From the NCBI GenBank assembly GCA_963718915.1, contig CAVRAI010000001.1, forward strand, positions 180,001 to 212,000: a DNA stretch of 32,000 bases, written 5' to 3'. This DNA comes from an uncultured Chloroflexia bacterium (lineage in GTDB: Bacteria > Chloroflexota > Ktedonobacteria > Ktedonobacterales > JADMIN01). Both the position numbers and the translations under genes were made by a program. This document shows positions 6,916-32,000 of this stretch, one piece after another. The notes under the pieces are model-generated. The model did not search any database. It was not told the DNA's origin and saw only the letters and a program-made list of their open reading frames with translations. Within the stretch, counting starts at the first letter, position 1. The number at the start of each line of letters is the position of its first letter.

Positions 6916-6978
6916 TGTTGCCTGATGTCGCCTGATGTCGCCTGATGTCGCCTGATGTCGCCTGATGTCGCCTGATGG
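6901..6978. repeat. 10-bp tandem repeat CCTGATGTYG, 7 full copies plus an 8-nt partial copy
   Basis: Read directly from the sequence: 2 x CCTGATGTTG, 5 x CCTGATGTCG, then CCTGATGG. The radical SAM stop codon (6913-6915) lies inside copy 2. Confidence 0.95.
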
Positions 6979-7066
6979 ACGTTGTGGAGAGGATCGAGCC
7001 GAGAGACCATACCTCTGAGGGCGGAGATGGTGTGGGCTGGCGTTGCATCCAGCTGAATTGGGGAGA

Positions 7067-7108: not shown

Positions 7109-7747
7109 TTACGGCTTCAGTTCGATCAGGCGCTCTGCCAGCGCCTCGCGGTGACCCTGGGCATTCAGGTCGAAGACTGGCATTGCCGGAGTGGCGCCCT
7201 CCTCCTCGATAATGAAATCACAGTCAGCGAAAGGGTGGCCACACTCCTCCAGCAGGAGCGATAGATCGCCAGGCAGGACATAGACATCGAGCAGATCGGA
7301 ATCGATCAGCGTCGTGGCGACGATGTCGATTAGCTTCTCGGCCATGTCAGCCTGATAGCCCTCCCGCACGAAGCGTTCGAGCAGCTTGTCGAGGGCGCGC
7401 TCGCCTTCATAGCGCCGTCGCCGAATCTCCTCATTGCTATAGCGCGCACGATAGCGGCTCCAGTGTGACGGATCGAGCGTTGACTCCGGCAACAGGTGGG
7501 CTGACTCATCGCCATCGCCGGTCGGGACATATTCCAGTTCTTCCGGGATGCGCAGATGGCGAAAGAAACAAATCGCATCGCCGAAGTCGGCAAAGTAAGT
7601 ACACCATTCACCCATCGGAATCGCGCGCGCGGACTCGAAGATAACACACGATGTGGGCGACAATCCCTCATCCCATGGCGCCACTCTGCACTCAGGCGTC
7701 ATAGCATCCTGCCAACGCTGCTGGTACTCTGCTAATGTTCTGCTCAT
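7109..7747 (-). CDS. Hypothetical acidic cytoplasmic protein, no family recognised
   Basis: The 214-aa ORF in the track starts at a TTG (7753). An ATG at 7747 with GAGAGGT upstream is the more likely start. Composition is coding-like and no motif was recognised. Confidence 0.55.
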   Translation of the reverse strand: MSRTLAEYQQRWQDAMTPECRVAPWDEGLSPTSCVIFESARAIPMGEWCTYFADFGDAICFFRHLRIPEELEYVPTGDGDESAHLLPESTLDPSHWSRYRARYSNEEIRRRRYEGERALDKLLERFVREGYQADMAEKLIDIVATTLIDSDLLDVYVLPGDLSLLLEECGHPFADCDFIIEEEGATPAMPVFDLNAQGHREALAERLIELKP

Positions 7748-12700: not shown

Positions 12701-13796
12701 GCAGGTGCGCGGTGGGATTGCCCAGCGAGCGGTAGTAGTGCAGTGGCAACTCGCCGAGCAACCCCTCCATCAGCAGGAAGGCGTTCGGCTCGTCGAGAAT
12801 GCGGAAGTCGGCGGTGAGTTCGGCCTCGTCGGGCGTGTGTGGCGCTTGCGAGGCGTATTCGCGCAGGAGCGTGGCGGCGAAGGCGTGGATCGTCATGATG
12901 GGCATACGCTCGCCCGGCAGTCCGCTTCGCTCCAGGCGCTCGCGCATCTCGCCAGCGGCACGGTTCGAGAACGTCAATGCCAGCACCTCTTCTGGCTGGA
13001 TGTGGCGTTCTTCGATGAGATGGGCGGCGCGACCAACCAGGGTCGCCGTCTTACCTGTTCCAGGGCCAGCCACGACCAGCGCGGGGCCGGGCGCGCGCGC
13101 GGCCAGCCGCTGCCCGTCATCCAGTTGCGCGATCAGTTCACCCGGAGCGTGTGCTTCACCGCTGTTTGCCTCTTGCGATGGTGCGGGCGCGCTTATGCCA
13201 TCCGTCGGTCGCTCCGGCGCCAGGACAGCGTCGATGAGGCGGCGGCGCGCCAGCAGATGCGAGATGCCAAAGTGGAGAGCCAGTTGCGCGGCGCCTATCG
13301 CGGAGCCTGAGGTAAAGATGCGGCGCACCTCGGCGCGTGGGGCCAGCAATTCGGCGGCAAAGGCGTTGGCCTCCTGTTCGCGCCGAACCCGTGGCGAATA
13401 TTCCTCGACGACACGGTCTTCGCTACGCAGGGCGGCGGCATCGGTCTGTTGATTCACTGCCCGCTCGTCACATGGCGCAAAGAGGCGGATACCCTCGCCG
13501 CGATGGAGCATGTAGTGGCCCAGTTCGTGCGCGATGGCAAACCGCCGCAGTTCTGGGTCCAGGTCGGCGCTCAGCCAGATGGCGCCGCCGAGACGGGGAT
13601 TCTCCCACGCCCAGAGTTGCAGCCGTGAATAGGCGCCGCCCAGCATCACATCGTCGCTGGGGCAGGGCTGAAGCTCGATCCCCAGGATGACGCGCAGGTG
13701 GTCGCTGTGGACGGCATCCGCGCTGGTGTCAGCGATCAGTTGCGCGCGCAAGGTAGCGGCGGCGCGTTCAATAACTTCGATACGTTTTGTAGGCAT
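9726..13796 (-). CDS. Fusion protein: ImmA/IrrE-type (M78) metallopeptidase + UvrD/PcrA-type SF1 helicase + C-terminal Cas4/AddB-like PD-(D/E)XK nuclease with Cys cluster
   Basis: 1356 aa from an ATG at 13796 with TGAGGA upstream. Peptidase motifs are HELGH (aa 90-94) and EQEANAFAAELLAP. Helicase motifs are GPGTGKT, TFSNRAAGEM, VDEFQDTN, GDQNQSIYRFRGA, LHQSKGLEFP and EERCLFYVGVTRA. The nuclease part has YLECPLQYKY, LPLYYLAYQQ and a terminal CAACAFCYVC. Confidence 0.9.
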   Translation of the reverse strand: MPTKRIEVIERAAATLRAQLIADTSADAVHSDHLRVILGIELQPCPSDDVMLGGAYSRLQLWAWENPRLGGAIWLSADLDPELRRFAIAHELGHYMLHRGEGIRLFAPCDERAVNQQTDAAALRSEDRVVEEYSPRVRREQEANAFAAELLAPRAEVRRIFTSGSAIGAAQLALHFGISHLLARRRLIDAVLAPERPTDGISAPAPSQEANSGEAHAPGELIAQLDDGQRLAARAPGPALVVAGPGTGKTATLVGRAAHLIEERHIQPEEVLALTFSNRAAGEMRERLERSGLPGERMPIMTIHAFAATLLREYASQAPHTPDEAELTADFRILDEPNAFLLMEGLLGELPLHYYRSLGNPTAHLRTLLDDFSHARDELLTPMDYLALVDAMPRMPAPDASTEIESPGSARKRQSRKIQPPDGAFTDEQIARARERAAAYAVWDRALRRRGLVDFGGLIQRAVELLRANRAVLAHVRGRYSQILVDEFQDTNRAAAELLLLIAGDAGGGLWVVGDQNQSIYRFRGASPGNLPRLAERYPNLRVLRLRRCYRAVPGIVRLGSAMATQLARLAPTSLSPVPSTGALHEALQPLDLEPARGDGAHQPILRTETFASAAHERVGLAAAIERFHVHDYRYGDQAILCRTHKQARQIAAILTRRGVPVSQLGDFFERSEVKDALMLLTLAAGPDARGVLRSAPLLVALGCSAPAGNELAATARYLSIQQRALPGALRDGHMLGQIPPLAPTTRAGLVRLGEIATGLRNSSFVGAKLADFLLLSGGYAWRLARVADGQDAPQRQDALPGLETAGQASQALAALGELVRLAWRFDARWQAEPEFRARLSRAVRHRKAARAAQPDTLAPAPNADVMPSAAPASAQPDEAVPVVTCFLHYLRALRATDVAVPVPAGNEDAVHILTLHQSKGLEFPVVLLPNLAHGQFPAGRPGREEIAPPGFRDGDTPGERDAEERCLFYVGVTRARDIVAFSRAASYSNGRTAERSSLLALMDGAPGWEAAEPLLSDEECERLLAVAATFEETNDDEEDESESDGSFAAAPVSERTPAQSPREKPVFRLHDLNQYLECPLQYKYLRIHDFRDPAREAVYSFHAFIRQGARTLRDVQAASPGADWKAAEARLQPLWDEVGPAGHAYEDFYRQAAEAILREEWRAITSPEGVAASERVRLAQPLQADLKHCVVEVTADREIDGSISSGEGAAPLTILVRLHTGRPRDAHKDDLTLPLYYLAYQQQHPGVPVRIVLAYTSGTLDDASADSADSADSYDPRHQRDVTDEARKAAERYLDPERKSRSKLDKLDEAARGIVAGAFAPRPNERRCAACAFCYVCPSDPESADPSPIPAATSN
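9975..10001. repeat. 9-bp tandem repeat CGAGTCCGC x3 inside the helicase-nuclease gene
   Basis: Read directly from the sequence. On the minus strand it encodes SADSADSADS in a linker just before the C-terminal Cys cluster region. Confidence 0.9.
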
Positions 13797-13870: not shown

Positions 13871-14515
13871 TTACGGGCTGTTATTCGCCTCCGCGCGCAC
13901 GATCTCGGCCCACTCACGCTTGCCTTCGGGGGAGAGCGCGCTGGCGTCGACCGCGTCGAGGAAGGTCTGCTGCTTCTGGTCTGGCTGCTGGTCGGCCATG
14001 TAGAAGCCGCCCGCTGGCGTTGCGTTCAGATACGCGCGGATGACCTCGGGCGCCGTCTTCAGCACGTCGGCGAATCGCTGGATGAGCGCGCGCGGGATGG
14101 ACGCGGCGCTGATGGCGTGCGCCTCCAGCCTTTGCAGGAGCGCGCCGGTCAGGCCAACGGCCTCGGCGAGTTGTGGTGGTGTGTAGTTGGCGCGTAACCC
14201 CAATTGCACCAGGCTTTCGACAGCGACGGGCGCCGCTTGCACGCTCTGTGCCCGTATCCGCGCCATCGCCTTCTCGGCTGCGGGCGATAAGACGGGATCG
14301 GGTGGCCCAACCAGCGATTCGGTCGCAAATCCGATAGTATGGTAATAGACGGCAAACTCCAGCAGTTCGCCGGTATATTGCGGGTAACGCCGCACGTAGT
14401 CTTCGATGCGTGGCGATTGCCCGGCATGATAGGCGTCGACGTACTGCGCAATGATGCTGTCGATCTCGTACTGGCGCTTCCGCTGTGCGCGTCGAGCATT
14501 ATTCTGATCAGACAC
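13871..14515 (-). CDS. XRE-like helix-turn-helix protein (ImmR-like or anti-sigma-like partner), otherwise uncharacterised
   Basis: The preferred start is a GTG at 14515, preceded by GAGGAGGG and overlapping the sigma gene stop by 8 nt (GTGTCTGA). The alternative is an ATG at 14539. The HTH-like segment reads YTPPQLAEAVGLTGALLQRLEAHAISAASIP. Confidence 0.65.
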   Translation of the reverse strand: MSDQNNARRAQRKRQYEIDSIIAQYVDAYHAGQSPRIEDYVRRYPQYTGELLEFAVYYHTIGFATESLVGPPDPVLSPAAEKAMARIRAQSVQAAPVAVESLVQLGLRANYTPPQLAEAVGLTGALLQRLEAHAISAASIPRALIQRFADVLKTAPEVIRAYLNATPAGGFYMADQQPDQKQQTFLDAVDASALSPEGKREWAEIVRAEANNSP

Positions 14516-15509
14516 CGTTGCCCTCCTCACCGCCGCCATAGCTCACGCCGAGTTCGCGCAGGGCTTTTTTCAGAAGATACCGTACCATCCGGGGAGTGAC
14601 ACCCAGTTTCGCGGCCGTTTCGTCCTGAGGCAGACTCTCCCGGAACCGATCGATGATCACTGTTCGCTGGTCTTCGGGCAACTCGCGCACCTTGTCGAGC
14701 AGATCACTCAGATCAACCTGTCGAAACGGCGTTTGAGCGTCCATATCTTCCAGTTGGTCGTCGAGCGGAAAGTCGCCTTCACGCTCTGGCGTTGCCTGTA
14801 TGCTATCTATTACATTGGTAGGGACGCGAGTTGGCTTTTCTACACCTGGCCGCTGCCACTCCCCCGCTTTTTTCATGACATCCTGGGCAACATGTTGCCG
14901 CAACCGTAAGAACGCTGTCTCAAAGCGGGTGAGCAGGAATATCTCATCATCGCTAGCTTCATCGTCGCTCAACTCCTGCCACAGTTTAATGAAGCACTCC
15001 TGCTCAAGATCCTGCTGAAGTTCTGGTTTCATGCCGGAGCGCGCCATTCCGGCGACATCCCTGGACCAATGCTTTACGCGGGGTTGAACCCGTCGCCAGA
15101 TCATCTTCAGAACACGGTTCGCATCATCGTTTGCGCCAGCGGCATAACGCTCGCGGTAACAGCGCGCCAGCACCTCCAATGGCAACCGCTGCTCGGCAAT
15201 TGGCTGCTCGATGCGCTGCCAGTAGTCGCCGCTGCCAACTGGAGGGAGCGCGTGGAATTCCGCGTCCAGTTGCGCGCGCAGGGGCGCATAGGGATCATCC
15301 TGGGTATCTTGCACGCCTGACTCCTTCATTTGATAGTAGTCAGTCGCGTCGCCGTAATTCGCTGGCCTGATCGCCGTGGCATATGCCAGAGCGTCGTCAG
15401 TCAGTGGGCGCTCGCGATTACGCCCAGTATAGGAGATTGCGCTGCCAGCGTCAAAGTCTGACGTAAAGACATCGCGCGGGTAATGACCTGACATCGCGAC
15501 ATTGTCCAT
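14508..15509 (-). CDS. Atypical sigma-70 family (ECF-like) RNA polymerase sigma factor with long N-terminal extension
   Basis: 333 aa. A region 2-like segment reads LEQECFIKLWQEL. The region 4 HTH reads LPEDQRTVIIDRFRESLPQDETAAKLGVTPRMVRYLLKKALRELG. About 160 aa at the N-terminus have no motif I recognise. A strong RBS GAGGAGGGG lies upstream. Confidence 0.7.
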   Translation of the reverse strand: MDNVAMSGHYPRDVFTSDFDAGSAISYTGRNRERPLTDDALAYATAIRPANYGDATDYYQMKESGVQDTQDDPYAPLRAQLDAEFHALPPVGSGDYWQRIEQPIAEQRLPLEVLARCYRERYAAGANDDANRVLKMIWRRVQPRVKHWSRDVAGMARSGMKPELQQDLEQECFIKLWQELSDDEASDDEIFLLTRFETAFLRLRQHVAQDVMKKAGEWQRPGVEKPTRVPTNVIDSIQATPEREGDFPLDDQLEDMDAQTPFRQVDLSDLLDKVRELPEDQRTVIIDRFRESLPQDETAAKLGVTPRMVRYLLKKALRELGVSYGGGEEGNGV

Positions 15510-18828: not shown

Positions 18829-19509
18829 ATGCCGGTTGAGAGTGAGGAACTGCGCAAGGCGTCGCTCTTTGCGCCACTATCGGACGATGATATGGCGCGC
18901 GTCGCGGCGGTGACGGTCGAGCGCCACTACGAGCGTGGCGATATCATCATCCTCGAAGGGGATCGCGGTGGCGCGCTCTATTTCGTGCGCAGTGGGCTGA
19001 TAAAGGTCTTCAAAAGCTCGCCAGGGGGCAAGGAGCAGGTGCTCCGGCTGATCGAGGCGGGCCGCACCTTCAACGATGTCCCCGCGCTGGACGCCGGGCC
19101 GAATCCCGCGAGCGCGGCGGCGCTGGAGCCAAGTGTCGTCTACGCGACGGGTGGCGCTGAGTTGCGGCGATTGATCGCCGAGCGGCCAGGAGTCGCGCTC
19201 GCAACGGTGCAGGCGCTGGCGGGCGCGTTGCGTCACCTCGTCGCGCTGGTCGAAGACCTCTCCTTCCGCCATGTCACGGCGCGCGTGGCCAAGATTCTGC
19301 TTGAACAGGATGTCGGCGTGGTTGCCAATAGCGGCGCATCGGGCAAGGCGGCTCACCGGCTGACCCAGCAGGAAATGGCGGCGATGGCGGGTACGGCGCG
19401 CGAGATGGTCGGCCGGGCGCTCAAAGAGCTGGAGGCAAGCGGCGCGATCCGCATCCAGCGCGGACGCATCACGGTGGTCAGCCGCGAGCGCCTCGAAACG
19501 TTCGCGTGA
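18829..19509 (+). CDS. Crp/Fnr family transcriptional regulator
   Basis: The cNMP-binding-like beta-roll reads GDIIILEGDRGGALYFVRSGLIKVF...GKEQVLRLIEAGRTFNDV. The C-terminal HTH reads LTQQEMAAMAGTAREMVGRALKELEASGAI. An RBS GAGAGGAG lies upstream. Confidence 0.9.
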   Translation: MPVESEELRKASLFAPLSDDDMARVAAVTVERHYERGDIIILEGDRGGALYFVRSGLIKVFKSSPGGKEQVLRLIEAGRTFNDVPALDAGPNPASAAALEPSVVYATGGAELRRLIAERPGVALATVQALAGALRHLVALVEDLSFRHVTARVAKILLEQDVGVVANSGASGKAAHRLTQQEMAAMAGTAREMVGRALKELEASGAIRIQRGRITVVSRERLETFA

Positions 19510-19605
19510 ACCATCCAGCCCCAAGCAGCGCGTGAAAAAGACCACCCTCTCGGAGCCGCATCGTTGAGGGCGAGGGGATGGCTATCGCGGGGTGCGCGCT
19601 AGTCG

Positions 19606-19866
19606 CTATTCTTTATAGTGATCGGCGTTGATCTTGGTATACTCCTGCCACTGCGGCGGCACAGCGCTTTCCTCGAAGATCGCGGTGACGGGACACGCTG
19701 GCTCGCAGGCGCCACAGTCAATGCACTCGTCGGGATTAATATACAACTGGTCGTATTGCTCATAGTCGGACTCGCCCGATGCTGGGTGGATGCAGTCCAC
19801 AGGACAAACATCCACACACGAGCCATCTTTCACGCCGACACATGGCTGGGTGATTACGTAGGTCAT
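19606..19866 (-). CDS. fdxA: 7Fe ferredoxin ([3Fe-4S][4Fe-4S], FdxA type)
   Basis: [27 protein letters not shown] ... [13 protein letters not shown] is the canonical Cys spacing. Confidence 0.9.
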
Positions 19867-20141
19867 AGGCTGTTCTGAGACTTTCTTATGCTGGTCTGGC
19901 TCTGGCTGGCCGAGGCAAAAGCGATGGTAGTGGTGATGGTAGTGGTGTGGCGACGCTCGCAGGCGCAGGGAGCAGCCGCGCTCCGGTACAGCGCAATATG
20001 GCCGTCGAAGCTGGGAGGAAGCGGCCCACGCTGTATCAGCGCGACATGACGGAACGACCTATCGTCCACACGCGTGTAGTCCCCGGCAGGCACGACTTCG
20101 CCTGCCTCATAGAGATCGGTTCCACACTCGTCACAATGCAT
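19863..20141 (-). CDS. Small Cys-containing (CxxC ... CxC) hypothetical protein, translationally coupled to fdxA
   Basis: An ATG at 20141 is preceded by GGGAGG. The protein reads [22 protein letters not shown]...APCACERR. Its stop overlaps the fdxA start as ATGA (19863-19866). Confidence 0.5.
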
Positions 20142-20324
20142 GACAGCCTCCCTGGCGCGCATCGTCACACCGTCAGCGGTACACCAGAATCCGCAGGTAT
20201 CCGGTAGGTATCCGTCGCATCGTAAGCATGACACCGCGCGACGCATTCGGCTGTGATAAACGTCGCTTTTGCGCGCTATGGTTACTCTGAGGTAATCGTG
20301 ATAGTTCTGGTTGCTGTGCGGATA

Positions 20325-20876
20325 TCAGTAGTAGAGTTGCGGCGGAAGACCTTTGATGCGTACGACATGGCGGACATAGCCCTCCCATTCCGAGAGGAGT
20401 TGCCGAGCTTCTGGAGAGCGTTCGACATTAAGTGATTCGGGGTCATCCAGGTTAAACTCTGGCAAATATGCGCCAGTAACACCTCTCTCCAGGATTCCGT
20501 CCGCAATAACGCCACGCTCCCTGAGAATAAGTATAGGCAGTCCCATCTGGAATGCCATCGCTGTCTCGATGTGGCACCAGGGACTCGTGAGCCAGACGTT
20601 GCCCAACGAGGTGGCCTCCTGCTGTTCGAAATCGGCGCCATCCCGCACCATTGCCGATGTGATGTGAACGCGACGAAATGCGACCGCCAGCAGACCGTTC
20701 GATTCAATCAGCATACGCCGGACCGCCGTCAACGGAGCATGAGTGTCATAATCAGTGACGCCAAGGGTACGCCGCTCCAGCCCACGACTCACCAGGTAAT
20801 CCTCAATATGTTTTATGAATGCCGCCTGCTTTGCCGTATACGGACGTGGAACGCTGACAAACACCGAAACGCCCAT
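20325..20876 (-). CDS. Stand-alone TIR-like / nucleoside 2-deoxyribosyltransferase-like domain protein
   Basis: An ATG at 20876 is preceded by GAGGGGGA. The protein starts MGVSVFVSVPRPYTAKQAAFIKHIEDYLVSRGLE. It contains a LLAVAF strand and SPWCHIETAMAFQMGLPILIL, resembling the TIR S.WC..E..A motif followed by a P.L.L strand. G+C is about 50%, lower than the flanks. Confidence 0.6.
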   Translation of the reverse strand: MGVSVFVSVPRPYTAKQAAFIKHIEDYLVSRGLERRTLGVTDYDTHAPLTAVRRMLIESNGLLAVAFRRVHITSAMVRDGADFEQQEATSLGNVWLTSPWCHIETAMAFQMGLPILILRERGVIADGILERGVTGAYLPEFNLDDPESLNVERSPEARQLLSEWEGYVRHVVRIKGLPPQLYY

Positions 20877-21092
20877 AGTTATCCCCCTCAGCCTGACAAT
20901 TGCAGAAGATGTATAGCCTGTTTGACACACTCCATTCTACCAAACGTAGCAAAGACAATTGTGGGGTTGATCTATGCGCGTCGCTGGGGATTATCTGCCG
21001 AGCGCTAACCAACTGACGCCTGGGCATAGAATAGGAAAGCGGATACGATCACCAACAGACATATGCGCAAGAAAAAGGAAAGGAGAACTACA

Positions 21093-23849: not shown

Positions 23850-25283
23850 ATGAGACATGCATGGACGAACCGCATCGGGCGTTTGCTGGCGATCCTCCTG
23901 TTGGCCATGGTGAGCGCGCTGCTGCTGGTGGCGCCCGCGCGGGCTGATGGCGTCACAGTAACACTCTCAACCTCGAACGGCACGAGCTTTACCTATGATG
24001 GTACGCAGCCCTTATTTACTGTGGTCGTGACATTCGCAACGAAGCCGACGATAAACAACTGTGGGCAAGAATACGTACATATCGATAGCGGACAAGATAC
24101 TGCTGTGGGTCTCGGGCCATCAGTCAGCCCAGATGGGCTGACCTGGACATTTACGCAAATCAGACCTGTTGGTACGATCCCCGTTGGCCCGCATACCGCG
24201 GTCGCGACATTCCTTGCTCCTGGGGCATCATGCACAACTGTCCAGAGTGCTCCATTGAGTTTCACGGTGAATAAAGCGACGTTCGCGCTGACCTGTAGTC
24301 TTAACGGGCCTGACGCGTATCTTGGAATCAATGGCCAAACGCTACACGTCCTGATGGCGCCTTATTCCGGCGCGGGGCAGTTGCCGACAGAGTTGCAAAC
24401 AGGGACCTACAATGTCTCGCTGGATGGGCCAACCCACGTCGCGGCGACGAATCTCACCCTCAATAGCAATAATGAGGCGACGATAACTGGCCCCACGCAA
24501 ATCGGCCTGTATAGGCTAACGTGTACATTCAATGGATCTGTGTCGTATACACCATCCACCATCACAGACACCAATCCCTACATGTTCAGCGCGCTGCATA
24601 GTCTGGGGGTCGTCAAACTCTACACCAACCCAACGACCCTGATCGCGGGAAGGAGTGCGGACTTCTATGTCGTATTCCATCCGGCGTCAGGATTGCCGAT
24701 GCCTACAGGGGAATTTTCTATCTGGCTCGGCCAAAGTCATACCATGCTCATGACGTTGGGGCCAACTGGCGCGTATCTGGTTCACGTCGACAAAATACCA
24801 GTGCTTGCTGGTGTGAGCAACATCGAAATCTTCTATCCCGGTGACCTGTACTACGCTCCGTCTAGTGTCGACTTCCCGCTCACCAATCCACCGATCCCAT
24901 CAGGTGTTGGCTCAGGAGGCACAGGCTCTACAGGCGGATCATTTGGCAATGCTCCGCAGGGGACAGCGACGGCGCAGGGAACGCCCGACACAACGGCGAC
25001 GGCGGATAGCGGCGCAGCAACGCCAACAACGGCCGTCGCGGGCAGCGCGGCGCCGACCACGCATTCCCAATCGGGCGATAATGGTGGGCTGTGGCTGATC
25101 GTCATCCTCGCGCTGGGCGGTCTGATCGTCGCTGGTGGTGCGGTTGGCTCCGGCATCTTCCTGATGCGACGCGCCAGAATATCTTCGAGCGCGGTTTCGC
25201 AGGCGCCGCGCGACTTCTACGTCCCGCCATCTTATACGCCACCGAGTGATGGGACGTGGCCTCCTCTCTACGACAATAGATAG
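23850..25283 (+). CDS. Secreted, C-terminally membrane-anchored protein with Ig-like beta-rich repeats and a Pro-rich cytoplasmic tail
   Basis: An ATG at 23850 begins the signal peptide MRHAWTNRIGRLLAILLLAMVSALLLVAPARA/DG. A Thr/Ser/Gly-rich beta-type ectodomain follows, then a G/T/A-rich linker and the TM segment LWLIVILALGGLIVAGGAVGSGIFLM followed by RRAR. The tail reads YVPPSYTPPSDGTWPPLYDNR. Confidence 0.7.
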   Translation: MRHAWTNRIGRLLAILLLAMVSALLLVAPARADGVTVTLSTSNGTSFTYDGTQPLFTVVVTFATKPTINNCGQEYVHIDSGQDTAVGLGPSVSPDGLTWTFTQIRPVGTIPVGPHTAVATFLAPGASCTTVQSAPLSFTVNKATFALTCSLNGPDAYLGINGQTLHVLMAPYSGAGQLPTELQTGTYNVSLDGPTHVAATNLTLNSNNEATITGPTQIGLYRLTCTFNGSVSYTPSTITDTNPYMFSALHSLGVVKLYTNPTTLIAGRSADFYVVFHPASGLPMPTGEFSIWLGQSHTMLMTLGPTGAYLVHVDKIPVLAGVSNIEIFYPGDLYYAPSSVDFPLTNPPIPSGVGSGGTGSTGGSFGNAPQGTATAQGTPDTTATADSGAATPTTAVAGSAAPTTHSQSGDNGGLWLIVILALGGLIVAGGAVGSGIFLMRRARISSSAVSQAPRDFYVPPSYTPPSDGTWPPLYDNR

Positions 25284-25371: not shown

Positions 25372-26520
25372 TCACTCACCAGTTGTTTCGTCGGGCATGT
25401 TGGCTGACGGCGTCTGCTCATGGCGGATGGAGGCCAGGCCCGCGGTGACACGCTGCCGCAGACCGCGCAGACGCGCCACCTGTGTCTTGCCCTGGGCGCC
25501 AACCTGCGCCGTCGCCTCGTTCCACAACTTGCCGGTATTCTGCCGCAGGTGCGCGAGCCTCACCTCCGCCGATTGTTGCACGCGGGCAGCGCCAGCCCGC
25601 GCATCCGCCGCGAAATCCCGGTGTGTGGGTGGCGTCGCGACTGGTGTTTCCCGCGTTATCGGCGGCTCAGGCGCTGGTGTGGCGGGCGCGACGGCCGGGG
25701 CAGCCGAGACGACAGGCACAGTGTTCGGCACGGACGCTGGCTCAGCGGCTACCTGCGCCTCCACCGCTGTTGCCACTACAGGCTCGGCCGTTGCCTCTAT
25801 CGCCGTCTCCGCAGCTGGCTCGACCAGCCGCCGGGGGCCGGGCTGCGCTGCGGGCTGGACTGGCTGCTTCACGGGTACCGCCTGCGCGTCAGCTTCAGAT
25901 GCGGGCGTCGCGATACGTCCCACGGGAACGGGGCGCGCCCGGCGGGCGGCGGGAACCGGGGTGGTGGGACGGGCAACGGGAGCGGGAGCCGTCTGTGGCA
26001 GGAGACGGAGCGCGGTTGCCGCGCTGGACGCATGGCTGGCGGCTGGCCGGGCGATACGCAGGGCGGCAAGCTGGTCGCGCGCCTCGTCGCGCTGGGCCGT
26101 CACCCGGTCGTGATCGTCCGCCAGCGCCTGGTGACGCGCCAGCACCCGCTCGTGACGCGCCAATAGATCCTCATGCTGCTCTATCAGCCGCGCGCGCAGC
26201 TCCTCACGATCCTCGATGTAGTCCTCTTGCTCCTCCAGCAGATCCTCGCGATCCACCAGCAGTCGCTCCAGGCTTCGTACATCACGTTCGAGCGCGCGGA
26301 CATGCAGTCCGGCGGCGAGTCGGCCCGGCAGCAGGAGCAGCAGCGCAATCACGAAGCCGAAGACCGCCGCACCCAACATCACGAACGCTACGTTCACCGG
26401 GTATTGCGCTTTGATCAGGTCAATTTGAATCGTGTAGTGATTGAGCGCCAGAAAGATGAGTACCATGAAACCCAGAACCGATACCATCACATACAAGATC
26501 AAGAAGCGTATGATGCGCAT
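25372..26520 (-). CDS. LapA-domain (DUF1049-like) two-TM protein with coiled coil and Ala/Pro-rich low-complexity tail
   Basis: The N-terminus MRIIRFLILYVMVSVLGFMVLIFLAL...VAFVMLGAAVFGFVIALLLLLP gives two TM helices as in the LapA domain. A charged heptad-like segment (RDVRSLERLLVDREDLLEEQEDYIEDREELRARLIEQHEDLLARHERVLARHQAL) follows, then A/P/T-rich sequence. Confidence 0.65.
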   Translation of the reverse strand: MRIIRFLILYVMVSVLGFMVLIFLALNHYTIQIDLIKAQYPVNVAFVMLGAAVFGFVIALLLLLPGRLAAGLHVRALERDVRSLERLLVDREDLLEEQEDYIEDREELRARLIEQHEDLLARHERVLARHQALADDHDRVTAQRDEARDQLAALRIARPAASHASSAATALRLLPQTAPAPVARPTTPVPAARRARPVPVGRIATPASEADAQAVPVKQPVQPAAQPGPRRLVEPAAETAIEATAEPVVATAVEAQVAAEPASVPNTVPVVSAAPAVAPATPAPEPPITRETPVATPPTHRDFAADARAGAARVQQSAEVRLAHLRQNTGKLWNEATAQVGAQGKTQVARLRGLRQRVTAGLASIRHEQTPSANMPDETTGE

Positions 26521-26671
26521 ATTGTTGCCTCACTATTCCGCGTGTTCCATCCACGCTGAAGGCATGCTATTCACAAACATTCTCCACCAAACATGCTCAA
26601 TGACAGTATGACGAACTGGGAGGCTGGCGGCTACATAGGCAGGACCGCTTGTGTTATGTCGCGCGACAGAA

Positions 26672-26706
26672 AGCGGCCCAGGCCGGAAATGACCTGAGCC
26701 GCTGAG
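26672..26706. repeat. 35-bp direct repeat copy 1 (identical to 27375-27409), contains an internal inverted repeat
   Basis: The sequence is AGCGGCCCAGGCCGGAAATGACCTGAGCCGCTGAG. AGCGGC pairs with GCCGCT. It lies about 30 bp downstream of the toxin pseudogene stop. Confidence 0.9.
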
Positions 26707-26738
26707 GGAGATTCCATCTGGGATTGTGGCGTGATGGC

Positions 26739-27026
26739 TTACAAGCGTGCGAGCAGTTTATCATACTTGTCATGCGTGCCAATCCAGAACCAGAGCATAT
26801 GATCGGGCTTTCTTTTCGCCATGACGCGATATTGTTGATTGACCCGCGCCGAATAATACTCGCCCCGCGTATGGAGGCGCTCAAAGTTCAGGCCGGGATG
26901 ATTTGGATTGGTTTCATAGAGTTAAAAGGCTTTGCGTGCCTGTTGTTGCACATCCTCAGGCAAGTCAGCCAGCAGCGCGCGAAACTGTTGAGTGGTTCTA
27001 TTGGGCCAGAACCGCTCGCTACTCAT
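26739..27026 (-). pseudogene. RelE/ParE-superfamily type II toxin with in-frame TAA at codon 35
   Basis: My own translation is MSSERFWPNRTTQQFRALLADLPEDVQQQARKAF*LYETNPNHPGLNFERLHTRGEYYSARVNQQYRVMAKRKPDHMLWFWIGTHDKYDKLLARL*. The stop is at 26922-26924 and the frame is unchanged across it. The ATG overlaps the antitoxin stop (ATGAGTAG). Confidence 0.7.
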
Positions 27027-27240
27027 AGCTTTCACTCAGCGGGCGCGTGAGACCAGCGGCGTCTTCCGCATCGCCATCCGCTGAGAGCATATCGAGCAAA
27101 TCGTCTGTCTTGGGGTGACTGAGCAAGCGCTCCCATTTCTGTTCGTCGGCGAAGGCCAACATCTTTGCCGCGATTTCGTTTTGCGCCTCTTCGGGCAACT
27201 GTTCAATTTGCTCTAGCGCACGTCGCAATTGCTCAGTCAT
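27019..27240 (-). CDS. Putative type II antitoxin (small acidic helical protein)
   Basis: 73 aa reading MTEQLRRALEQIEQLPEEAQNEIAAKMLAFADEQKWERLL.... It lies immediately upstream of, and overlaps, the toxin-like ORF. The family was not recognised precisely. Confidence 0.6.
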   Translation of the reverse strand: MTEQLRRALEQIEQLPEEAQNEIAAKMLAFADEQKWERLLSHPKTDDLLDMLSADGDAEDAAGLTRPLSESYE

Positions 27241-27270
27241 ATGCTCAATCTCTCTGCTCTATTCACCTTG

Positions 27271-27312
27271 TCATCTTATCATCTTTCATCTATCTTATCA
27301 TCTTATCATCTT
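27271..27312. repeat. AT-rich cluster of five TCATCT(T/A) heptamers just upstream of the antitoxin gene (candidate operator/promoter region)
   Basis: Copies start at 27271, 27279, 27286, 27298 and 27306. The cluster is strikingly AT-rich within a high-GC context. Confidence 0.6.
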
Positions 27313-27374
27313 AGTTCTCAGGTCGGGTAGCGAATACACTGTATCACAAGCGGATCAAGGGGTTCATGGCAAAC

Positions 27375-27409
27375 AGCGGCCCAGGCCGGAAATGACCTGA
27401 GCCGCTGAG
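27375..27409. repeat. 35-bp direct repeat copy 2 (identical to 26672-26706)
   Basis: The 35-mer is identical to copy 1. Here the stem extends to CAGCGGC/GCCGCTG. It lies about 28 bp downstream of the dioxygenase stop. Confidence 0.9.
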
Positions 27410-27436
27410 AGATGGGATATATATAGTGGCGAGCCG

Positions 27437-28486
27437 CTATGCGATTGTGCCTGAGCCAGTCGTCATAGGCGTTGGCAGCGGACGCAATCCCGCCTCTATC
27501 TCGCGCCGGTGTGGCTCCAGGAACGGCGGCAGCGCCAGCGTCTCGCCGAGATGCTCCGCATCCTCGTCCGTGGCGAAGCCGGGGCCGTCGGTGGCAATCT
27601 CGAAGAGCACGCCGCCCGGCTCGCGGAAGTAGATCGAATGGAAGTAGAAGCGGTCGATCACTGGCGTCACGCGAAGCCCTGCCTCGTCGAGCCGCTCGCG
27701 CCAGGCGACGTGTGTCTCGTTGGTTGGCGTGCGGAAGGCGACGTGGTGGACGCCGCCGATGCCGACTTGGCCCATTCGCGGGTCGCCGACGCGCTGCTCC
27801 AGATGTACCTCTGTGCCGGGGCCGCCGTTGCCCACCTGATAGATACGCACCAGCCGGGTCTCGCCGCCCCCCTCGCTCGGCGGCAGGGTATACTGGCCTG
27901 ACTCGCGGAAGCCCATCGTCTCCGTGAGCACGTGCAGGGTGGCGTCCTCACGCGCCGAGAGCAACCGGACACCGTGCAGCCCGCGAATCTGGTATTCCGC
28001 CGGGATGGGGCTGCGCGCCCAGGGCGTGCCACCCGCGACGTGCTGCTCCTCGCCCTCTGCCGGGGCCACCAGCTCCAGCCGCTGCCCCTCAGGGTCGCTG
28101 AACGGCAAGACCGCACGGCCCGCGCGCTGCTGGACGCCCTCATGCGCGACGCTTCGCTCATCGAAGTGCTGCACCCACCAGTCGAGCGCGGCGCGGTCTG
28201 GCGCGCGCAGCAGAATCGCGGCGACGGTTCCCACGCCATGGCGCGCGGGGCCAGCGTCGGGCCAGTCGAAGAAGGTCAACTCGGTGCCCGCGTGGCCGCT
28301 CTCGTCGCCGTAGAAGAGGTGGTAGGCTGAGACATCGTCCTGGTTGACGGTCTTCTTGACCAGCCGCATGCCCAGCACCTGTGTGTAAAACGCGACATTG
28401 CCCGCCGCGTTGCCGGTGACGGCGGTGATGTGGTGCAGCCCGCCGAGCCGCGAATTTGCTGTATTGGTTGTCTCAATCTTTTCCAT
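27437..28486 (-). CDS. VOC-superfamily ring-cleaving dioxygenase (glyoxalase family, MhqA/MhqO-like)
   Basis: An ATG at 28486 is preceded by GGAGCAGG. GLHHITAVTGNAAGNVAFYTQVLGMRLVKKTVNQDDVSAYHLFYGDESGHAGTELTFFDWP and the later GGVHHVAFR...FHSIYFREPGGVLFEIATDGPGF are typical of this family. Confidence 0.85.
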   Translation of the reverse strand: MEKIETTNTANSRLGGLHHITAVTGNAAGNVAFYTQVLGMRLVKKTVNQDDVSAYHLFYGDESGHAGTELTFFDWPDAGPARHGVGTVAAILLRAPDRAALDWWVQHFDERSVAHEGVQQRAGRAVLPFSDPEGQRLELVAPAEGEEQHVAGGTPWARSPIPAEYQIRGLHGVRLLSAREDATLHVLTETMGFRESGQYTLPPSEGGGETRLVRIYQVGNGGPGTEVHLEQRVGDPRMGQVGIGGVHHVAFRTPTNETHVAWRERLDEAGLRVTPVIDRFYFHSIYFREPGGVLFEIATDGPGFATDEDAEHLGETLALPPFLEPHRREIEAGLRPLPTPMTTGSGTIA

Positions 28487-28563
28487 GATCCTGCTCCGTT
28501 TCGGTCTGCGTGTAGTGCCAGCGGAAGCCATGCCAGCCCCTCTGATACACTATACCTTCTACA

Positions 28564-28585
28564 AATAGTTTAGTACTAAACTATT
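28564..28585. promoter_or_regulatory. Perfect 22-bp AT-rich palindrome, candidate operator
   Basis: AATAGTTTAGT/ACTAAACTATT lies 78 bp upstream of the dioxygenase start and 109 bp upstream of the MazG-like start, in the divergent intergenic region. Confidence 0.45.
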
Positions 28586-28693
28586 GAACTGTCAACAGGC
28601 GGACGGCTATCATCGTGAGGTTAGGTCATACAAGCGGCATATGATACACTTAAGTCGCACGCTTAAATCATTCAAAAATGTGAGGAGACCTGC

Positions 28694-29032
28694 ATGGATA
28701 TTCAGGATTTTCAAGCATATCAGCAAGCATCGCGAAAGACCTGGGGAGCGATCCCGATGGATAGTCCCATTGTATATCCGACACTCGGACTCACCAACGA
28801 GGCTGGGGAGGTTGCAGGAAAGATCAAAAAGATCTTTCGCGATAAAGGGGGAAAGATTTCCGCAGAGGATCGTGAAGCCCTGAAATACGAATTAGGGGAC
28901 GTCCTGTGGTATCTCACCCAGATCTGTACAGAACTGGATCTGACCCTGCAAGAAGTCGCATCAGCGAATGTTGAAAAGCTCTATTCGCGCCTGGAACGCG
29001 GTCAGATTCGTGGAGAGGGCGATAAGCGGTAA
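28694..29032 (+). CDS. MazG-like nucleoside triphosphate pyrophosphohydrolase (small all-alpha NTP-PPase)
   Basis: 112 aa with an RBS GAGGAG. LGLTNEAGEVAGKIKKIFRD (EXXE) and ELGDVLWYLTQICTELDL...NVEKL are typical of the small MazG family. The region is low-GC. Confidence 0.8.
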   Translation: MDIQDFQAYQQASRKTWGAIPMDSPIVYPTLGLTNEAGEVAGKIKKIFRDKGGKISAEDREALKYELGDVLWYLTQICTELDLTLQEVASANVEKLYSRLERGQIRGEGDKR

Positions 29033-29274
29033 AGAGCCATATGAAGGAGAAAGACGAGCAGTCAGGTTCTCTCGTGGTCAGTCCGCTGGGATTGAAGATT
29101 CTGCGGGTCAAACCACCTACTTTACCCGAATCCCTGGGGGTGGAGGCGACGCGCGGGTTCCAGTGTATGCCGCCCAAAGTATTCTGTGACATACTGTGAA
29201 AGGTGAATGGCGCAGCGCACATGCGTTGTGGCAGAGAATACCTAGAGACACATTACAAGGGCTACATAGTGTCC

Positions 29275-29484
29275 ATGCATTCCACTTCAGCACAGATAAC
29301 GACTGATCCGCAGGTCCTCAGCGGCAAACCGGTGGTCGCTGGCACACGTATCTCAGTGCAACTCATCCTCGAAAAGATGCGTGATGGTTGGACGATCACA
29401 GACCTGCTTGATGACTATCCCCACCTCACCCGCGAGCAGATCGTTGCCGCTCTCGCCTATGTTGCCGAAGCCATGGGAGCATAG
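29275..29484 (+). CDS. DUF433 domain protein (antitoxin-like HTH), no cognate toxin gene adjacent
   Basis: TTDPQVLSGKPVVAGTRISVQLILEKMRDGWTITDLLDDYPHLTREQIVAALAY is the canonical DUF433 pattern. An ATG at 29275 is the likely start, whereas the track ORF begins at 29203. Confidence 0.8.
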   Translation: MHSTSAQITTDPQVLSGKPVVAGTRISVQLILEKMRDGWTITDLLDDYPHLTREQIVAALAYVAEAMGA

Positions 29485-29517
29485 GGCGCCTGATGAATTT
29501 TATGCGCACTTATTAGA

Positions 29518-31422
29518 TCACCTCGCAGATCGCTGGAAGGCCTCGACCATCCGCTGAGCGATCTGGCGATGGCCATGAAGGTGGGCAGGGAGTGATAACA
29601 GTTGATAATTCTCTGAGCCTCGTATATGGCCTATAACACCTGTTCCTGTTAACCAAGATGATCCTCGGACGACCAAGTTATCTAACTCGCTGAAGGCTGT
29701 ATAGCTTTCATGACCGAATAGACGACGCACGATCCCTGTTGGATAGATTATCAGCATCTCCGGCACGTTTCCTGCCCTCTCAAGCCGATGAATTCCCAAA
29801 GGGATAAGGACAAATATTCCAGCGGCATACAGTACCGGCATAAGGACTTGGTTGAGTATCCCTCCCGTTGCTAGGATGCCACCAAGGAGCATCAGGAAGA
29901 GAAGATCCCAACGCGTCAACTTGCCGCCGTAAAATACTTGCTCGTCGGGAAGCGGAGCCTTCATCATTCCTCGTGCGAGAACATAGATTGGAGCATCTTC
30001 TCGGTGCATGGTTATTTCTTCTGGAAGCACGCCAGTTCTCTCTAAGGCAAACAGTATTTGCAAGAAACCGGTATAATGATCCTTTCGCATATCGGCATAA
30101 ATGTAAGGACGCAACTTAGCAGGGATAGACCTGCACGCCTTTACCATGACACCAATCACGGGCTTACCTAAGTCCAATGCCGTCGTATATTCTTCTTGAA
30201 CGGCTTCAGAACGCATAGAATCAGGGGAAATGAAGACAGCGAGCGCTGAACACTGTTGGATAGCGGTTCGGATCTCCTGTTTCCACCGCTTCCCAGCCAA
30301 TAGCCGACTACGATCAACCCATGGCTGCAAACCGTTCTCCCGGATTCCCCTTTCAGCGTCATCGACGACTTGTGGGTTACTGCGTGCATAGCTCAGGAAG
30401 ATAAGTGGCCTGTGTTCACTAGGCTGATCACTTGTTCTGCTCTTCTGGGCGTGTCGGAACGCAACGACAATCCTTGCCGCGATCACTTGCGTGATTTTGC
30501 TTAGCGAGCGTCCTGGCTGGAAATTGAATGTTGCTGGGATCATCACCGTCTTCCGTGTCCCATCATCCTCGACTACTGCTAACGAAGATCCGAAGAGATC
30601 GGCAACACGAGCGGAGACTCCTTTTTTTAAGGACTTGTAATCGACACTTTCAAGCTCCAAAATCTGGATTGATTGCAGCTTTGCAAATGGATATGACACA
30701 ACCCTTCCAGGCTCATTGATCAGAAATCCGTGCGGGGTTAGGACGATTAACGGGCCATATTTTACAACTTGCCAAATCTTTGTACGATAGGCTCTGAAGA
30801 ATGAAATAGCAAATATAACTCCGAACACGAGATATACACCCGACTCGTAATAGGCTCGCTGAAATTGGTCAATCACAAATGCGAGAAACGAAATGATCAT
30901 TACCAATGCAGCTGCGGTGAACGTTTCACGCGTGACGATGCGATACGAACGCGAGTGACGGCGATAGACCTGCCAATCAGGGGGAGTAAGACCATTCTGG
31001 GCCCGCACCAACACGACATCGGGATCAAACAGTGACGGATCATTAGGCCAGTGACTCAAGCCCTCCATATCAAGCGCAAGCAGCAATTCGCGCCACCCAA
31101 AATCAAACGACCGTGTAAAATCGCTCCACTGCAAGTCTCGAAGCGCATTGGGCAACTCGCGCCTTTTGTAAATAAGTAGCGGAAGAATTGGTCGTTGAGC
31201 CGTTGTAGCAACAGCAATTGCTTTATTTACAAGGGAGACATATTGCTTCTGCTCAGTAATGCCAATGCAGATTGCGGCAAAAGGCGACAGCCGCTGCAAT
31301 TGAGAGTTGTCGCTGACGAGCGAGATGCGTAGGCCCCGCGCAACCAATCCTTCAGCAATTCTTGCACCTAGCGTTTGCTCGGTTGTTGGTAAGCAAACGA
31401 TGATGTGAGGAGCATCAGTCAT
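29518..31422 (-). CDS. Membrane protein with internally duplicated [TIR - 2 TM helices - PH-like domain] architecture
   Basis: 634 aa with an RBS GAGGAGGGGG. The second TIR (aa about 338-465, nt 30028-30411) reads PLIFLSYARSNPQVVDDAERGIRENGLQPWVDRSRLLAGKRWKQEIRTAIQQCSALAVFISPDSMRSEAVQEEYTTALDLGKPVIGVMV. The first, TIR-like domain spans aa 5-118. TM pairs lie at aa about 167-212 and 505-546. Each pair is followed by a roughly 90-110 aa beta-rich segment. Confidence 0.8.
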   Translation of the reverse strand: MTDAPHIIVCLPTTEQTLGARIAEGLVARGLRISLVSDNSQLQRLSPFAAICIGITEQKQYVSLVNKAIAVATTAQRPILPLLIYKRRELPNALRDLQWSDFTRSFDFGWRELLLALDMEGLSHWPNDPSLFDPDVVLVRAQNGLTPPDWQVYRRHSRSYRIVTRETFTAAALVMIISFLAFVIDQFQRAYYESGVYLVFGVIFAISFFRAYRTKIWQVVKYGPLIVLTPHGFLINEPGRVVSYPFAKLQSIQILELESVDYKSLKKGVSARVADLFGSSLAVVEDDGTRKTVMIPATFNFQPGRSLSKITQVIAARIVVAFRHAQKSRTSDQPSEHRPLIFLSYARSNPQVVDDAERGIRENGLQPWVDRSRLLAGKRWKQEIRTAIQQCSALAVFISPDSMRSEAVQEEYTTALDLGKPVIGVMVKACRSIPAKLRPYIYADMRKDHYTGFLQILFALERTGVLPEEITMHREDAPIYVLARGMMKAPLPDEQVFYGGKLTRWDLLFLMLLGGILATGGILNQVLMPVLYAAGIFVLIPLGIHRLERAGNVPEMLIIYPTGIVRRLFGHESYTAFSELDNLVVRGSSWLTGTGVIGHIRGSENYQLLSLPAHLHGHRQIAQRMVEAFQRSAR

Positions 31423-31740
31423 ATCCCCCTCCTCGTAGATATTCAGAGATGAGTGGAGCAGCGCAATACATCATTCTTGCTGCGAAAGAAGAGAGAGTGG
31501 TTATCTACCCCTTCTTCGAATTGTTCATATGCCATCGCATGACGCATGGCTGCGTGACAACGTTATCTACCCATGGTCAGCTTTGTGGCTTTCATCAGAC
31601 GCCTTTTAGCCCAGCACTGCTTCCTTAATATATCATCTCTGGCAATGGCTCCGCGAACTGCATTGCATGAAGTACTCGCTAGCAGAAGGAAGCGAATATG
31701 ATCAGCCCATATATTGGGTGAATTATAGCCCCTCAACTCT

Positions 31741-32000
31741 CTACCGTGTCCAGAAGCCCTGGGGGTCGCACTCGCGGATGATGCGTAGCTCGTCGGCGGT
31801 GGGTGGCGGCGTCTCGTGGGCGTCGGGGGCTACGCGCAAGTCCCAGCCGGTGTTCGCGCGCACCTGCTCCGCGCTGCTGCCGGGATGCCACGAGCGTAGC
31901 TCCATCTCGTGCGTATCGGCGGTGAAGCCGAGCACCGCCAGCGTCGTAATCACCGCTGCTGGGCCGCCACGCGGCAGCCCCACGCGCGCCCGCCAGTCGC
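31741..32000 (-). CDS. CoA-transferase subunit B family protein, C-terminal part (gene continues beyond the window)
   Basis: GLPRGGPAAVITTLAVLGFTADTHEMELRSWHPGSSAEQVRANTGWDLRVAPDAHETPPPTADELRIIRECDPQGFW matches the C-terminus of 3-oxoacid/glutaconate CoA-transferase B subunits. The frame stays open to nt 32000. Confidence 0.75.
   Translation of the reverse strand, partial: DWRARVGLPRGGPAAVITTLAVLGFTADTHEMELRSWHPGSSAEQVRANTGWDLRVAPDAHETPPPTADELRIIRECDPQGFWTR

Follow-up and report, generated by a model that had tools for sequence, protein, structure and literature searches.

Annotation of a 32,000-nt stretch of genomic DNA from an uncultured Chloroflexia bacterium (contig CAVRAI010000001.1, positions 180,001 to 212,000; hereafter the window) revealed a block of low G+C content, at positions 28535-31740, between a dioxygenase-like gene and a CoA-transferase gene. 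The block carries three genes, whose products are a MazG-like nucleotide pyrophosphohydrolase, a protein of the DUF433 family and a double-TIR membrane protein. These genes have separate histories and are therefore neighbours by accident that form no operon. We hold this structural and historical account of the locus with high confidence. The combined statement, that the locus is a composite insertion hotspot and the TIR protein a stand-alone membrane enzyme, is favoured with some reserve.

Related loci were compared with the window by blastn and tblastn. The block is bounded on one side by a backbone gene for a two-domain protein of 364 amino acids (aa) that resembles VOC/extradiol dioxygenases (27437-28531, minus strand; Pfam Glyoxalase and Glyoxalase_4). 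On the other side lies the 3′ end of a backbone gene encoding a CoA-transferase subunit (31741-32000, minus strand), which runs off the window and whose homologue in related locus L059 carries the CoA_trans domain (PF01144). In Ktedonobacterales loci L006-L010 the dioxygenase and the CoA-transferase share 85-88% and 93-95% aa identity, respectively, with the proteins of the window. The closest relatives of the dioxygenase (79-88% aa identity) come from metagenome-assembled genomes (MAGs) labelled Ktedonobacterales, Ktedonobacteria or ‘uncultured Chloroflexia’. At the nucleotide level the flanks of the relatives match the window at no more than approximately 84-85% identity.

The CoA-transferase gene and the dioxygenase gene with its leader (to approximately 28600-28620) are present in every relative, and the intervening content varies by genome. 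A MazG gene alone was found in L008 and L071. In L009 it is accompanied by genes for an ECF-type sigma factor and an af470-like monooxygenase, to which L010 adds a gene for a 549-aa SLFN_AlbA_2/HATPase_c_4 protein. The same SLFN gene, in disrupted form, occurs in L006 together with an unknown gene (172 aa), while L007 holds an unrelated unknown gene (282 aa). Six further loci (L060-63, L069 and L073) contain DUF433, PIN_10, MazG, monooxygenase and sigma factor genes, and L059 contains an unknown gene (121 aa), DUF433 and a PIN homologue. This pattern of presence and absence is that of a multi-layer hotspot, not of the one island envisaged in a preliminary description of the block. A metagenome scan with the CoA-transferase 3′ end returned five loci only and no new cargo type. 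The long-read MAG contigs of L059 and L006 contain frameshifted dioxygenase, CoA-transferase, PIN and SLFN genes; these frameshifts are probably assembly errors rather than signs of pseudogenes, and calls of disruption in the two loci are uncertain.

Additional copies of the CoA-transferase 3′ end, each terminating at the stop codon, were distinguished in three loci: the last 63 bp of the gene in L006 and L059 and the last 120 bp in L010. They sit on the far side of the cargo most proximal to the CoA-transferase gene, and in L010 the sequence that follows the extra copy is the one that follows the intact gene in L009. Such copies are the footprint expected of DNA that enters at the 3′ end of a gene and carries a brought or copied replacement end. 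The insertion could proceed by site-specific recombination in trans or by single-crossover integration of a circle. The SLFN cargo is a single gene (Schlafen/AlbA_2 and HATPase_c_4, plus an AlkZ-like part) bounded by the intact CoA-transferase end and its repeat, which has 120 bp in L010 (gene 5417-7066, repeat 7139-7258) and 63 bp in L006 (gene 2902-4551, repeat 4651-4713).

The MazG gene of the window (28694-29032, plus strand) encodes a single-domain protein of 112 aa (PF03819, E 2e-11, 44.3 bits against a cut-off of 22). It was identified at the same locus in ten relatives (L008, L009, L010, L060-63, L069, L071 and L073), with 94-97% aa identity, and its 3′ flank, to approximately 29124-29163, is conserved along with the gene. 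In the relatives MazG likewise has a G+C content of 0.52, beside dioxygenase genes of 0.68-0.69. A recent exchange of MazG between species, suggested by an identity above that of the flanks, was considered and rejected, as the proportion of differing codons at identical residues is similar in all three genes (0.14-0.19 for MazG, 0.18-0.25 for the dioxygenase and 0.17-0.25 for the CoA-transferase). MazG has diverged in step with its flanks and is therefore not a recent arrival, but older than the rest of the block. The horizontal acquisition proposed earlier for the entire block thus applies to the part with DUF433 and TIR and not to MazG, an old resident of the locus.

The MazG family is large (7,527 homologues) and unusually conserved, and identity among the 120 matches listed, which span several Chloroflexota lineages, is at least 79%. 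Conservation at this level reaches Ktedonobacteraceae, Roseiflexaceae, Kouleothrix and Reticulibacter. Small MazG proteins are frequent on phages, as stated in the preliminary description: 941 phage records were matched at approximately 50% identity, a level also seen with the MazG genes of cyanophages and actinophages. The best match in the PDB is YpjD of B. subtilis (2gta), with which the acidic residues of ‘NEAGEVAG’ and ‘ELGDVLWY’ align. Judged by its sequence, MazG is an ordinary member of its family, and it would most likely serve in ordinary nucleotide housekeeping or in the hydrolysis of stress nucleotides.

DUF433 (COG2442) proteins are predicted antitoxins of PIN toxins and are abundant in Chloroflexi (PMC2701414), and the pairing of DUF433 with PIN_10 has been catalogued (PMC5499597). 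The DUF433 gene of the window (29203-29484, plus strand; PF04255, E 6e-24, residues 32-86) has a maximal open reading frame of 93 codons. Close homologues have 65-75 aa, and a start at ATG 29275 would give a product of 69 aa. In tblastn alignments the protein is 75-84% identical to copies at the same locus that lie a few nucleotides ahead of a PIN_10 gene. DUF433 is followed by PIN_10/DUF5615 in L060-63, L069 and L073, with intact pairs in L060-63. Segment 29161-29500 of the window shares 91% nucleotide identity with positions 5895-6232 of L059, where the order is a 63-bp CoA-transferase fragment, the DUF433 cassette, a PIN_10/DUF5615 homologue (frameshifted or error-laden) and the intact CoA-transferase gene.

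In the window the antitoxin gene is present and the toxin gene that should follow it is absent. DUF433 had been described as an orphan, and this is borne out: there is no PIN toxin gene in the window, and tblastn with the L060 toxin found nothing there, the matched region of L059 being 6225-6566. A vestige of the toxin was nevertheless recognized at 29493-29501 (plus strand). The sequence that follows the stop codon of DUF433 is GGCGCCTG ATG AAT TTT (Met-Asn-Phe), and in a three-way alignment with L059 (ATGAATTTC) and L060 (ATGCATTTT) these codons coincide with the toxin starts ATG AAT TTC and ATG CAT TTT, respectively. The L060 toxin begins MHFLVDENV, and similarity of the window to the relatives ends past the third toxin codon. 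Because the toxin is intact in relatives and only three of its codons are left here, the orphan DUF433 gene is the survivor of a broken pair. Its product is likely to be a decaying or free DNA-binding remnant.

Between the MazG and DUF433 genes, positions 29125-29160 hold a degenerate copy of the last 35 nt or so of the CoA-transferase gene (direct repeat 29125-29141 versus 31750-31766, 15/17 identical positions). Its local alignment score is 14, compared with 8.7 ± 1.6 for shuffled sequences, and was reached by 21 of 2000 shuffles. In L059 the corresponding position, next to the shared DUF433 cassette, is taken by the intact 63-bp CoA-transferase fragment. The segment of the window is accordingly best read as an old fragment of the target end left by an insertion.

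The remainder of the block, 29502-31740 (approximately 2.2 kb), has no counterpart at this locus in any relative and sits in the place of the toxin. It contains the TIR gene only, with 318 nt upstream of it (31423-31740; G+C 0.47). A distance of 17 nt separates the stop codon of the TIR gene from the toxin breakpoint. The TIR gene and the DUF433 gene, the latter with an intact frame, converge on an intergenic gap of 33 nt. At the opposite end, the last 10-28 nt by the CoA-transferase stop codon (31713-31740) are common to the ends of other cargo in the relatives: homology of L006, L007 and L010 reaches 31727, 31713 and 31732, respectively, and the sequence AGAGTTGAGGG beside the TIR segment resembles the CoA-transferase-proximal end of the SLFN cassettes of L006 and L010. 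A Logan contig of 2.3 kb that encodes an identical TIR protein is 99.96% identical to positions 29415-31759 of the window.

These observations can be arranged in three layers. The simplest state of the locus, as in L008 and L071, is dioxygenase, MazG and CoA-transferase, with MazG as a long-standing low-GC resident. As reconstructed, a DUF433-PIN_10 cassette then came in at the CoA-transferase 3′ end, of which it left a duplicate behind. The TIR segment would have arrived last, again at this hotspot, and the toxin would have been lost together with any CoA-transferase fragment in between.

The fall in G+C content noticed in the preliminary description is real and sharp at both edges, but the values of 38-48% given for it were too low by 5-8 points. 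The G+C content of 28535-31740 is 0.497, compared with 0.604 for the whole window. Windows of 300 nt reach 0.43-0.54 inside the block, 0.64-0.72 in 27450-28500 and 0.63 in 31650-31949. The dioxygenase gene has a G+C content of 0.68 (windows up to 0.72) and the CoA-transferase end one of 0.72. At third codon positions the values are 0.49 for TIR, 0.51 for MazG and 0.60 for DUF433, versus 0.83 for the dioxygenase and 0.87 for the CoA-transferase. The block is the lowest-GC 3 kb within the window. Further patches of 0.51-0.58 occur at 1-3000, 14500-15500, 19500-21000, 24000-25000 and 26400-27450, and mixed composition is therefore normal for this genome. A second low-GC indel, 26710-27369, lies between a LapA-domain gene and the dioxygenase gene and is absent from L007-L009 and L060-63. 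It contains orf73 (27019-27240, minus strand), an acidic open reading frame of 73 aa with no Pfam match and with approximately 90% aa identity in L006 and L010.

The edges of the variable region differ from the edges of the compositional block. In the region upstream of the dioxygenase gene (28532-28620), blastn homology to L006-L010, L059 and L060 runs to 28595-28620. As this region is conserved in all relatives, the variable region starts only near 28600-28620; its other limit is the CoA-transferase stop codon (31741). The G+C content of 28532-28693 is 0.43, and the dioxygenase upstream region, being low in G+C yet conserved, is therefore outside any insertion. The 8-mer AGCCCCTC, put forward as a possible target duplication, does occur in two copies. 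The right one is at 31727-31734 as reported, but the left one is at 28535-28542 and not at 28545-28552. As a target duplication it was rejected: two copies are at chance level (shuffle mean 1.13; at least two copies in 31 of 100 shuffles), and neither marks a real junction, the left copy lying inside the conserved dioxygenase leader and the right one in sequence common to the relatives. A tRNA-Thr(CGT) predicted by ARAGORN at 31783-31874 (plus strand) was likewise dismissed as an integration target. It is 92 nt long, lies within the GC-rich CoA-transferase coding sequence, gave no Rfam match at E up to 1 and is almost certainly a false positive. In a promoter and terminator scan, counts were not above those in shuffled sequences.

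The TIR gene (29518-31422, minus strand) encodes a predicted protein of 634 aa. According to Pfam, hhalign and an AlphaFold (AF2) model, it is composed of two repeats, each with a TIR domain, two transmembrane helices and a beta-sandwich with a C-terminal helix. The first repeat comprises a degenerate TIR domain (residues 1-120), transmembrane helices 165-187 and 195-211, and sandwich 214-327. The second comprises a catalytic-type TIR domain (340-462, with E411), transmembrane helices 504-523 and 525-552, and sandwich 556-631. The three gene identities given in the preliminary description were confirmed by Pfam, which found MazG, DUF433 and TIR domains. The C-terminal TIR domain matches TIR_2 (PF13676) at residues 341-453 (E 1e-23, 84.5 bits against a cut-off of 28). 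For the N-terminal one the TIR_2 score is 17.2 bits, below the cut-off, and reaches 31-53 bits in distant family members (P0134-P0139). Residues 1-335 and 336-634 are homologous to each other (hhalign probability 96.7%, E 4e-10, 235 columns). The term ‘double TIR’ therefore stands, with one Pfam domain above threshold and the second supported by internal homology and by the TIR_2 scores of family members. Assignment as a membrane protein agrees with the four hydrophobic helices found both by hydropathy and in the model.

The AF2 model, based on an alignment of 12 sequences, has a pLDDT of 79.5 and a pTM of 0.74. Each modelled half consists of an alpha/beta domain of TIR type, a linker, two long hydrophobic helices, a seven-stranded sheet region and a long terminal helix. 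A Foldseek search of the PDB retrieved the TIR domains of SPARTA TIR-APAZ, SARM1, Hydra TRR-2, MyD88 and ThsB (probability 1.00, target TM-score up to 0.80). E411 is invariant in 12/12 family members and aligns with the Glu of ‘WVPHE’ in the B. cereus TIR protein 8fz9 (ThsB). The equivalent column of the first TIR domain is occupied by Ala in 6 of 11 sequences (among them the protein of the window, with Ala68, and its four closest relatives), by Asp in three, and by Glu and Val in one each. As the chain comes back after each hairpin to the side from which it entered the membrane, the four soluble domains are all predicted to lie in the cytoplasm.

A transmembrane hairpin followed by a PH fold is the layout of bPH_2 (YdbS/YdbT-type) proteins. 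In both halves of the TIR protein, the strand count of the sandwich and its C-terminal helix after the hairpin fit PH-type topology, and the modelled module may tentatively be termed PH-like. Pfam searches with the membrane and sandwich modules, in both copies and in five family members, gave no match. A weak NCBIfam match to the STM3941 family (E 0.003) covers residues 169-253, and two chains of the PH-containing GRK2 were retrieved by Foldseek at low rank, with the first model only. Bacterial PH domains have been described by Xu et al. 2010 (PMC2817789).

Homologues of the TIR protein are rare. A word-indexed search of 5.8 billion clusters identified only three other full-length relatives (62, 59 and 40% identity), and HMMER, run exhaustively with residues 125-335 on 1.84 billion representative proteins, gave 14 matches, of which about ten were full-length (600-673 aa). 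All named members of the family belong to Ktedonobacterales. A search of a phage collection with the TIR protein gave no match. Literature searches on TIR with bacterial PH domains, on Ktedonobacteria with TIR and on type III Thoeris returned nothing relevant. To our knowledge, the architecture of two consecutive TIR-hairpin-sandwich units has not been described so far.

There is no conserved neighbour at the loci of the TIR family. A GNAT gene is nearby in L002, a methyltransferase fragment in L004 and housekeeping genes in L066 and L067, and L005, L064 and L065 contain a cluster of up to five TIR proteins that includes TIR-NB-ARC-WD40. As the neighbours are different everywhere, the TIR gene appears to work alone. 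In L064 (6945-17836), around homologue P0144 (40% identical), the cluster is composed of TIR_2 (269 aa), the double-TIR protein, TIR-NB-ARC-WD40 (1222 aa), TIR_2 (163 aa) and Clp_N-TIR (1325 aa). In L068 (10045-12432), genes of the membrane-microdomain type, NfeD and Band_7 (SPFH), are located directly downstream of homologue P0147 on the same strand.

TIR enzymes that degrade NAD+ depend on assembly of TIR domains with one another and on a conserved Glu, as in SARM1, AbTir, ThsB and SPARTA. We tentatively propose, as a possibility that falls a little short of probable, that the protein of the window is a stand-alone membrane-tethered enzyme whose second TIR domain hydrolyses NAD+. It would be held in the membrane through its two helical hairpins, and the second TIR domain (Glu411) would cleave NAD+ on some trigger, possibly a disturbance of the membrane or envelope sensed through the hairpins and PH-like modules. 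The degenerate first TIR domain (Ala68) may act as a non-catalytic partner or brake in an asymmetric TIR pair, and the hairpin and sandwich modules may provide membrane attachment, oligomerization or sensing. A cell that is infected or damaged would as a result stop growing or die. We regard as rather doubtful a bolder joint reading, in which the protein is an undescribed single-gene immune or suicide device with an asymmetric TIR pair of its own, held at the membrane and triggering NAD+ depletion in response to an envelope-level cue, and in which the CoA-transferase 3′ end is a cassette hotspot that accepts one-gene cargo (TIR, Schlafen/AlbA_2-type, toxin-antitoxin) with no linked recombinase.

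Several observations speak against the interpretation of the protein and locus proposed here. Conservation in the TIR family does not extend to the Trp of the common WxxxE motif, and some TIR homologues are located amid housekeeping genes, a setting that gives no hint of defence. The stretch of CoA-transferase sequence left in the window is short and, taken alone, just moderately significant (21/2000 shuffles). No recombinase domain was identified in the block or in the cargo of the relatives examined. How the insertions and the loss of the toxin followed one another, and when, is a reconstruction, made with relatives whose flanks do not exceed the nucleotide identity given above.

A non-immune role, as a lineage-specific membrane scaffold or as a factor of programmed cell death or development in the filamentous, sporulating Ktedonobacteria, seems unlikely to us, if less so than the alternatives that follow. 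The confinement of named members to Ktedonobacterales, the location of some of them near genes for housekeeping or membrane organization (Pro_dh, MFS, NfeD-Band_7) and the lack of a match in phages or plasmids would all suit such a role. The gene is, however, patchily distributed, absent from this locus in all relatives, inserted in a variable hotspot and deviant in G+C content; moreover, the invariant catalytic-type Glu favours an enzyme over a scaffold, and one homologue is embedded in a cluster of TIR and NLR-like genes.

It is more improbable still that the protein makes a ThsB-like nucleotide signal read by an effector encoded elsewhere in the genome. Weak likeness to ThsB was detected (Pfam ThsB_TIR E 1e-6, PADLOC ThsB E 0.0014), 11 of 12 family members match the NCBIfam model of Thoeris type III ThcB4 (best E 7e-9), and the gene of one homologue belongs to a five-gene TIR cluster. 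These matches are confined to the level of the TIR domain, however, while membrane anchoring and a duplicated module are foreign to ThsB, and no ThsA-like protein (SIR2, Macro or SLOG) is encoded next to the gene here or in the homologue loci examined.

The preliminary description had proposed that the block was acquired as one 3.2-kb island and that MazG, DUF433 and TIR cooperate in abortive infection through depletion of nucleotides or NAD. We consider this very improbable, and the comparison of loci largely refutes it. Low G+C content does extend uniformly over all three genes, TIR and phage-type MazG are conflict-associated families, and MazG and DUF433 co-occur at the locus in relatives. 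MazG, however, is present at the locus without TIR in at least nine related loci and has diverged like the flanks, and the DUF433 gene beside MazG in relatives carries its PIN toxin, in a different gene order. A remnant of the CoA-transferase end separates MazG from DUF433, and the TIR gene is on the opposite strand, convergent with DUF433. The trio was not found together at the TIR homologue loci L002-L005 and L064-L068, where neither MazG nor DUF433 is adjacent, and the PADLOC run, which had been advised, recognized no system and gave only matches at the TIR-domain level.

Equally remote is a new TIR-DUF433 pair, with DUF433 recruited as regulator or antitoxin of the TIR protein: the genes are adjacent, with their 3′ ends 33 nt apart and the DUF433 frame intact, but their convergent orientation precludes a single operon, the cassette has a PIN toxin in L059 and three toxin codons in the window, no other TIR family member has DUF433 nearby, and Makarova et al. 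list COG2442 without a partner other than PIN (PMC2701414).

Other conflict-type genes were observed in the window outside the block. A DUF4062-TPR protein of 853 aa is encoded at 231-2792 (plus strand), and the gene at 9726-13796 (minus strand) encodes a protein of 1356 aa in which an IrrE/M78 peptidase domain is fused to a UvrD helicase and to a PD-(D/E)XK nuclease. The sole transposon-related gene seen in the window is of TnpB type (3650-5140, plus strand; OrfB_IS605 with a Cas12f1-like TNB domain) and is located 24 kb from the block.

A low G+C content by itself does not tell when a gene was acquired: that of MazG has stayed at approximately 0.52 beside genes of 0.68 across species. In the same way, an orphan antitoxin can be a mere leftover of a displaced toxin. 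The lasting interest of the locus is in the rare membrane protein with a built-in pair of catalytic and degenerate TIR domains, and in a hotspot without a recombinase. If the protein is an active NADase, it would be a compact model in which to examine the activation of TIR domains that work as a pair and the coupling of this activation to the membrane.

The elements of the locus can be compared with known systems. The CoA-transferase 3′ end resembles integration hotspots at the 3′ ends of conserved genes in the varied cargo at one site and in the 63-120-bp copies of the target end beyond the cargo. It differs in the small size of the cargo (one or two genes) and in the lack of an integrase or recombinase in or beside the cargo examined. 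Of the marks of an island formed by site-specific integration, repeats of the target 3′ end can be made out plainly in L010, L006 and L059 and in degenerate form in the window, and a recombinase domain was not found in the block or cargo.

The DUF433 protein is a typical member of the type II pairs of DUF433 (COG2442/VapB45-type) and PIN_10 (DUF5615, Mut7-C group). The toxin of the window, by contrast, is reduced to its first three codons, so that the pair is broken and no functioning toxin-antitoxin system remains. In E. coli, mazG lies downstream of the toxin-antitoxin genes mazEF. The arrangement mazE-mazF-mazG is paralleled in relatives by a same-strand series of DUF433, PIN_10 and MazG (L060 3001-4109; L061-63, L069 and L073), which in loci of the L060 type sits between the dioxygenase gene and the monooxygenase gene. 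The window differs from it, as MazG comes first, the CoA-transferase remnant precedes DUF433 and the toxin is absent. Unlike the two-domain MazG of E. coli, the 112-aa MazG of the window has a single domain and is nearer to phage MazG (approximately 50% identity) and YpjD.

In the model, the layout of both halves of the TIR protein resembles that of bPH_2 hairpin-PH proteins: a pair of transmembrane helices precedes a seven-stranded sandwich, which a C-terminal helix caps. Bacterial TIR NADases and SARM1-type proteins are matched in the TIR_2 domain, in the superposition on the TIR domains of SPARTA, SARM1, MyD88 and ThsB, and in the aligned invariant Glu. Known TIR effectors share with the protein a patchy distribution and a location in variable regions. 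They differ from it in that here the unit of TIR, hairpin and sandwich is repeated in tandem, with one TIR domain degenerate, and that no Argonaute/APAZ, ThsA, cyclase, SAVED or cyclic-nucleotide-binding domain occurs in the protein or its neighbours. No ThsA of Thoeris (SIR2 or Macro with SLOG) was found among its neighbours in the window or at the homologue loci. No APAZ or PIWI gene, as in SPARTA, is nearby, and the PADLOC model Aga_TIR covers the TIR part only (residues 338-469). For CBASS and Pycsar, the block contains no cyclase, and the match to SAVED_TIR covers model positions 4-94 of 404, again the TIR part only. With PADLOC and NCBIfam, similarity is limited to the domain, and scores fall far short of the family cut-offs. 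Because the defining partners and domains are absent, the protein stands outside Thoeris, SPARTA, CBASS and Pycsar. It is a member of the TIR superfamily by its domain, with a new arrangement, and the rest of the locus reflects ordinary genome dynamics.

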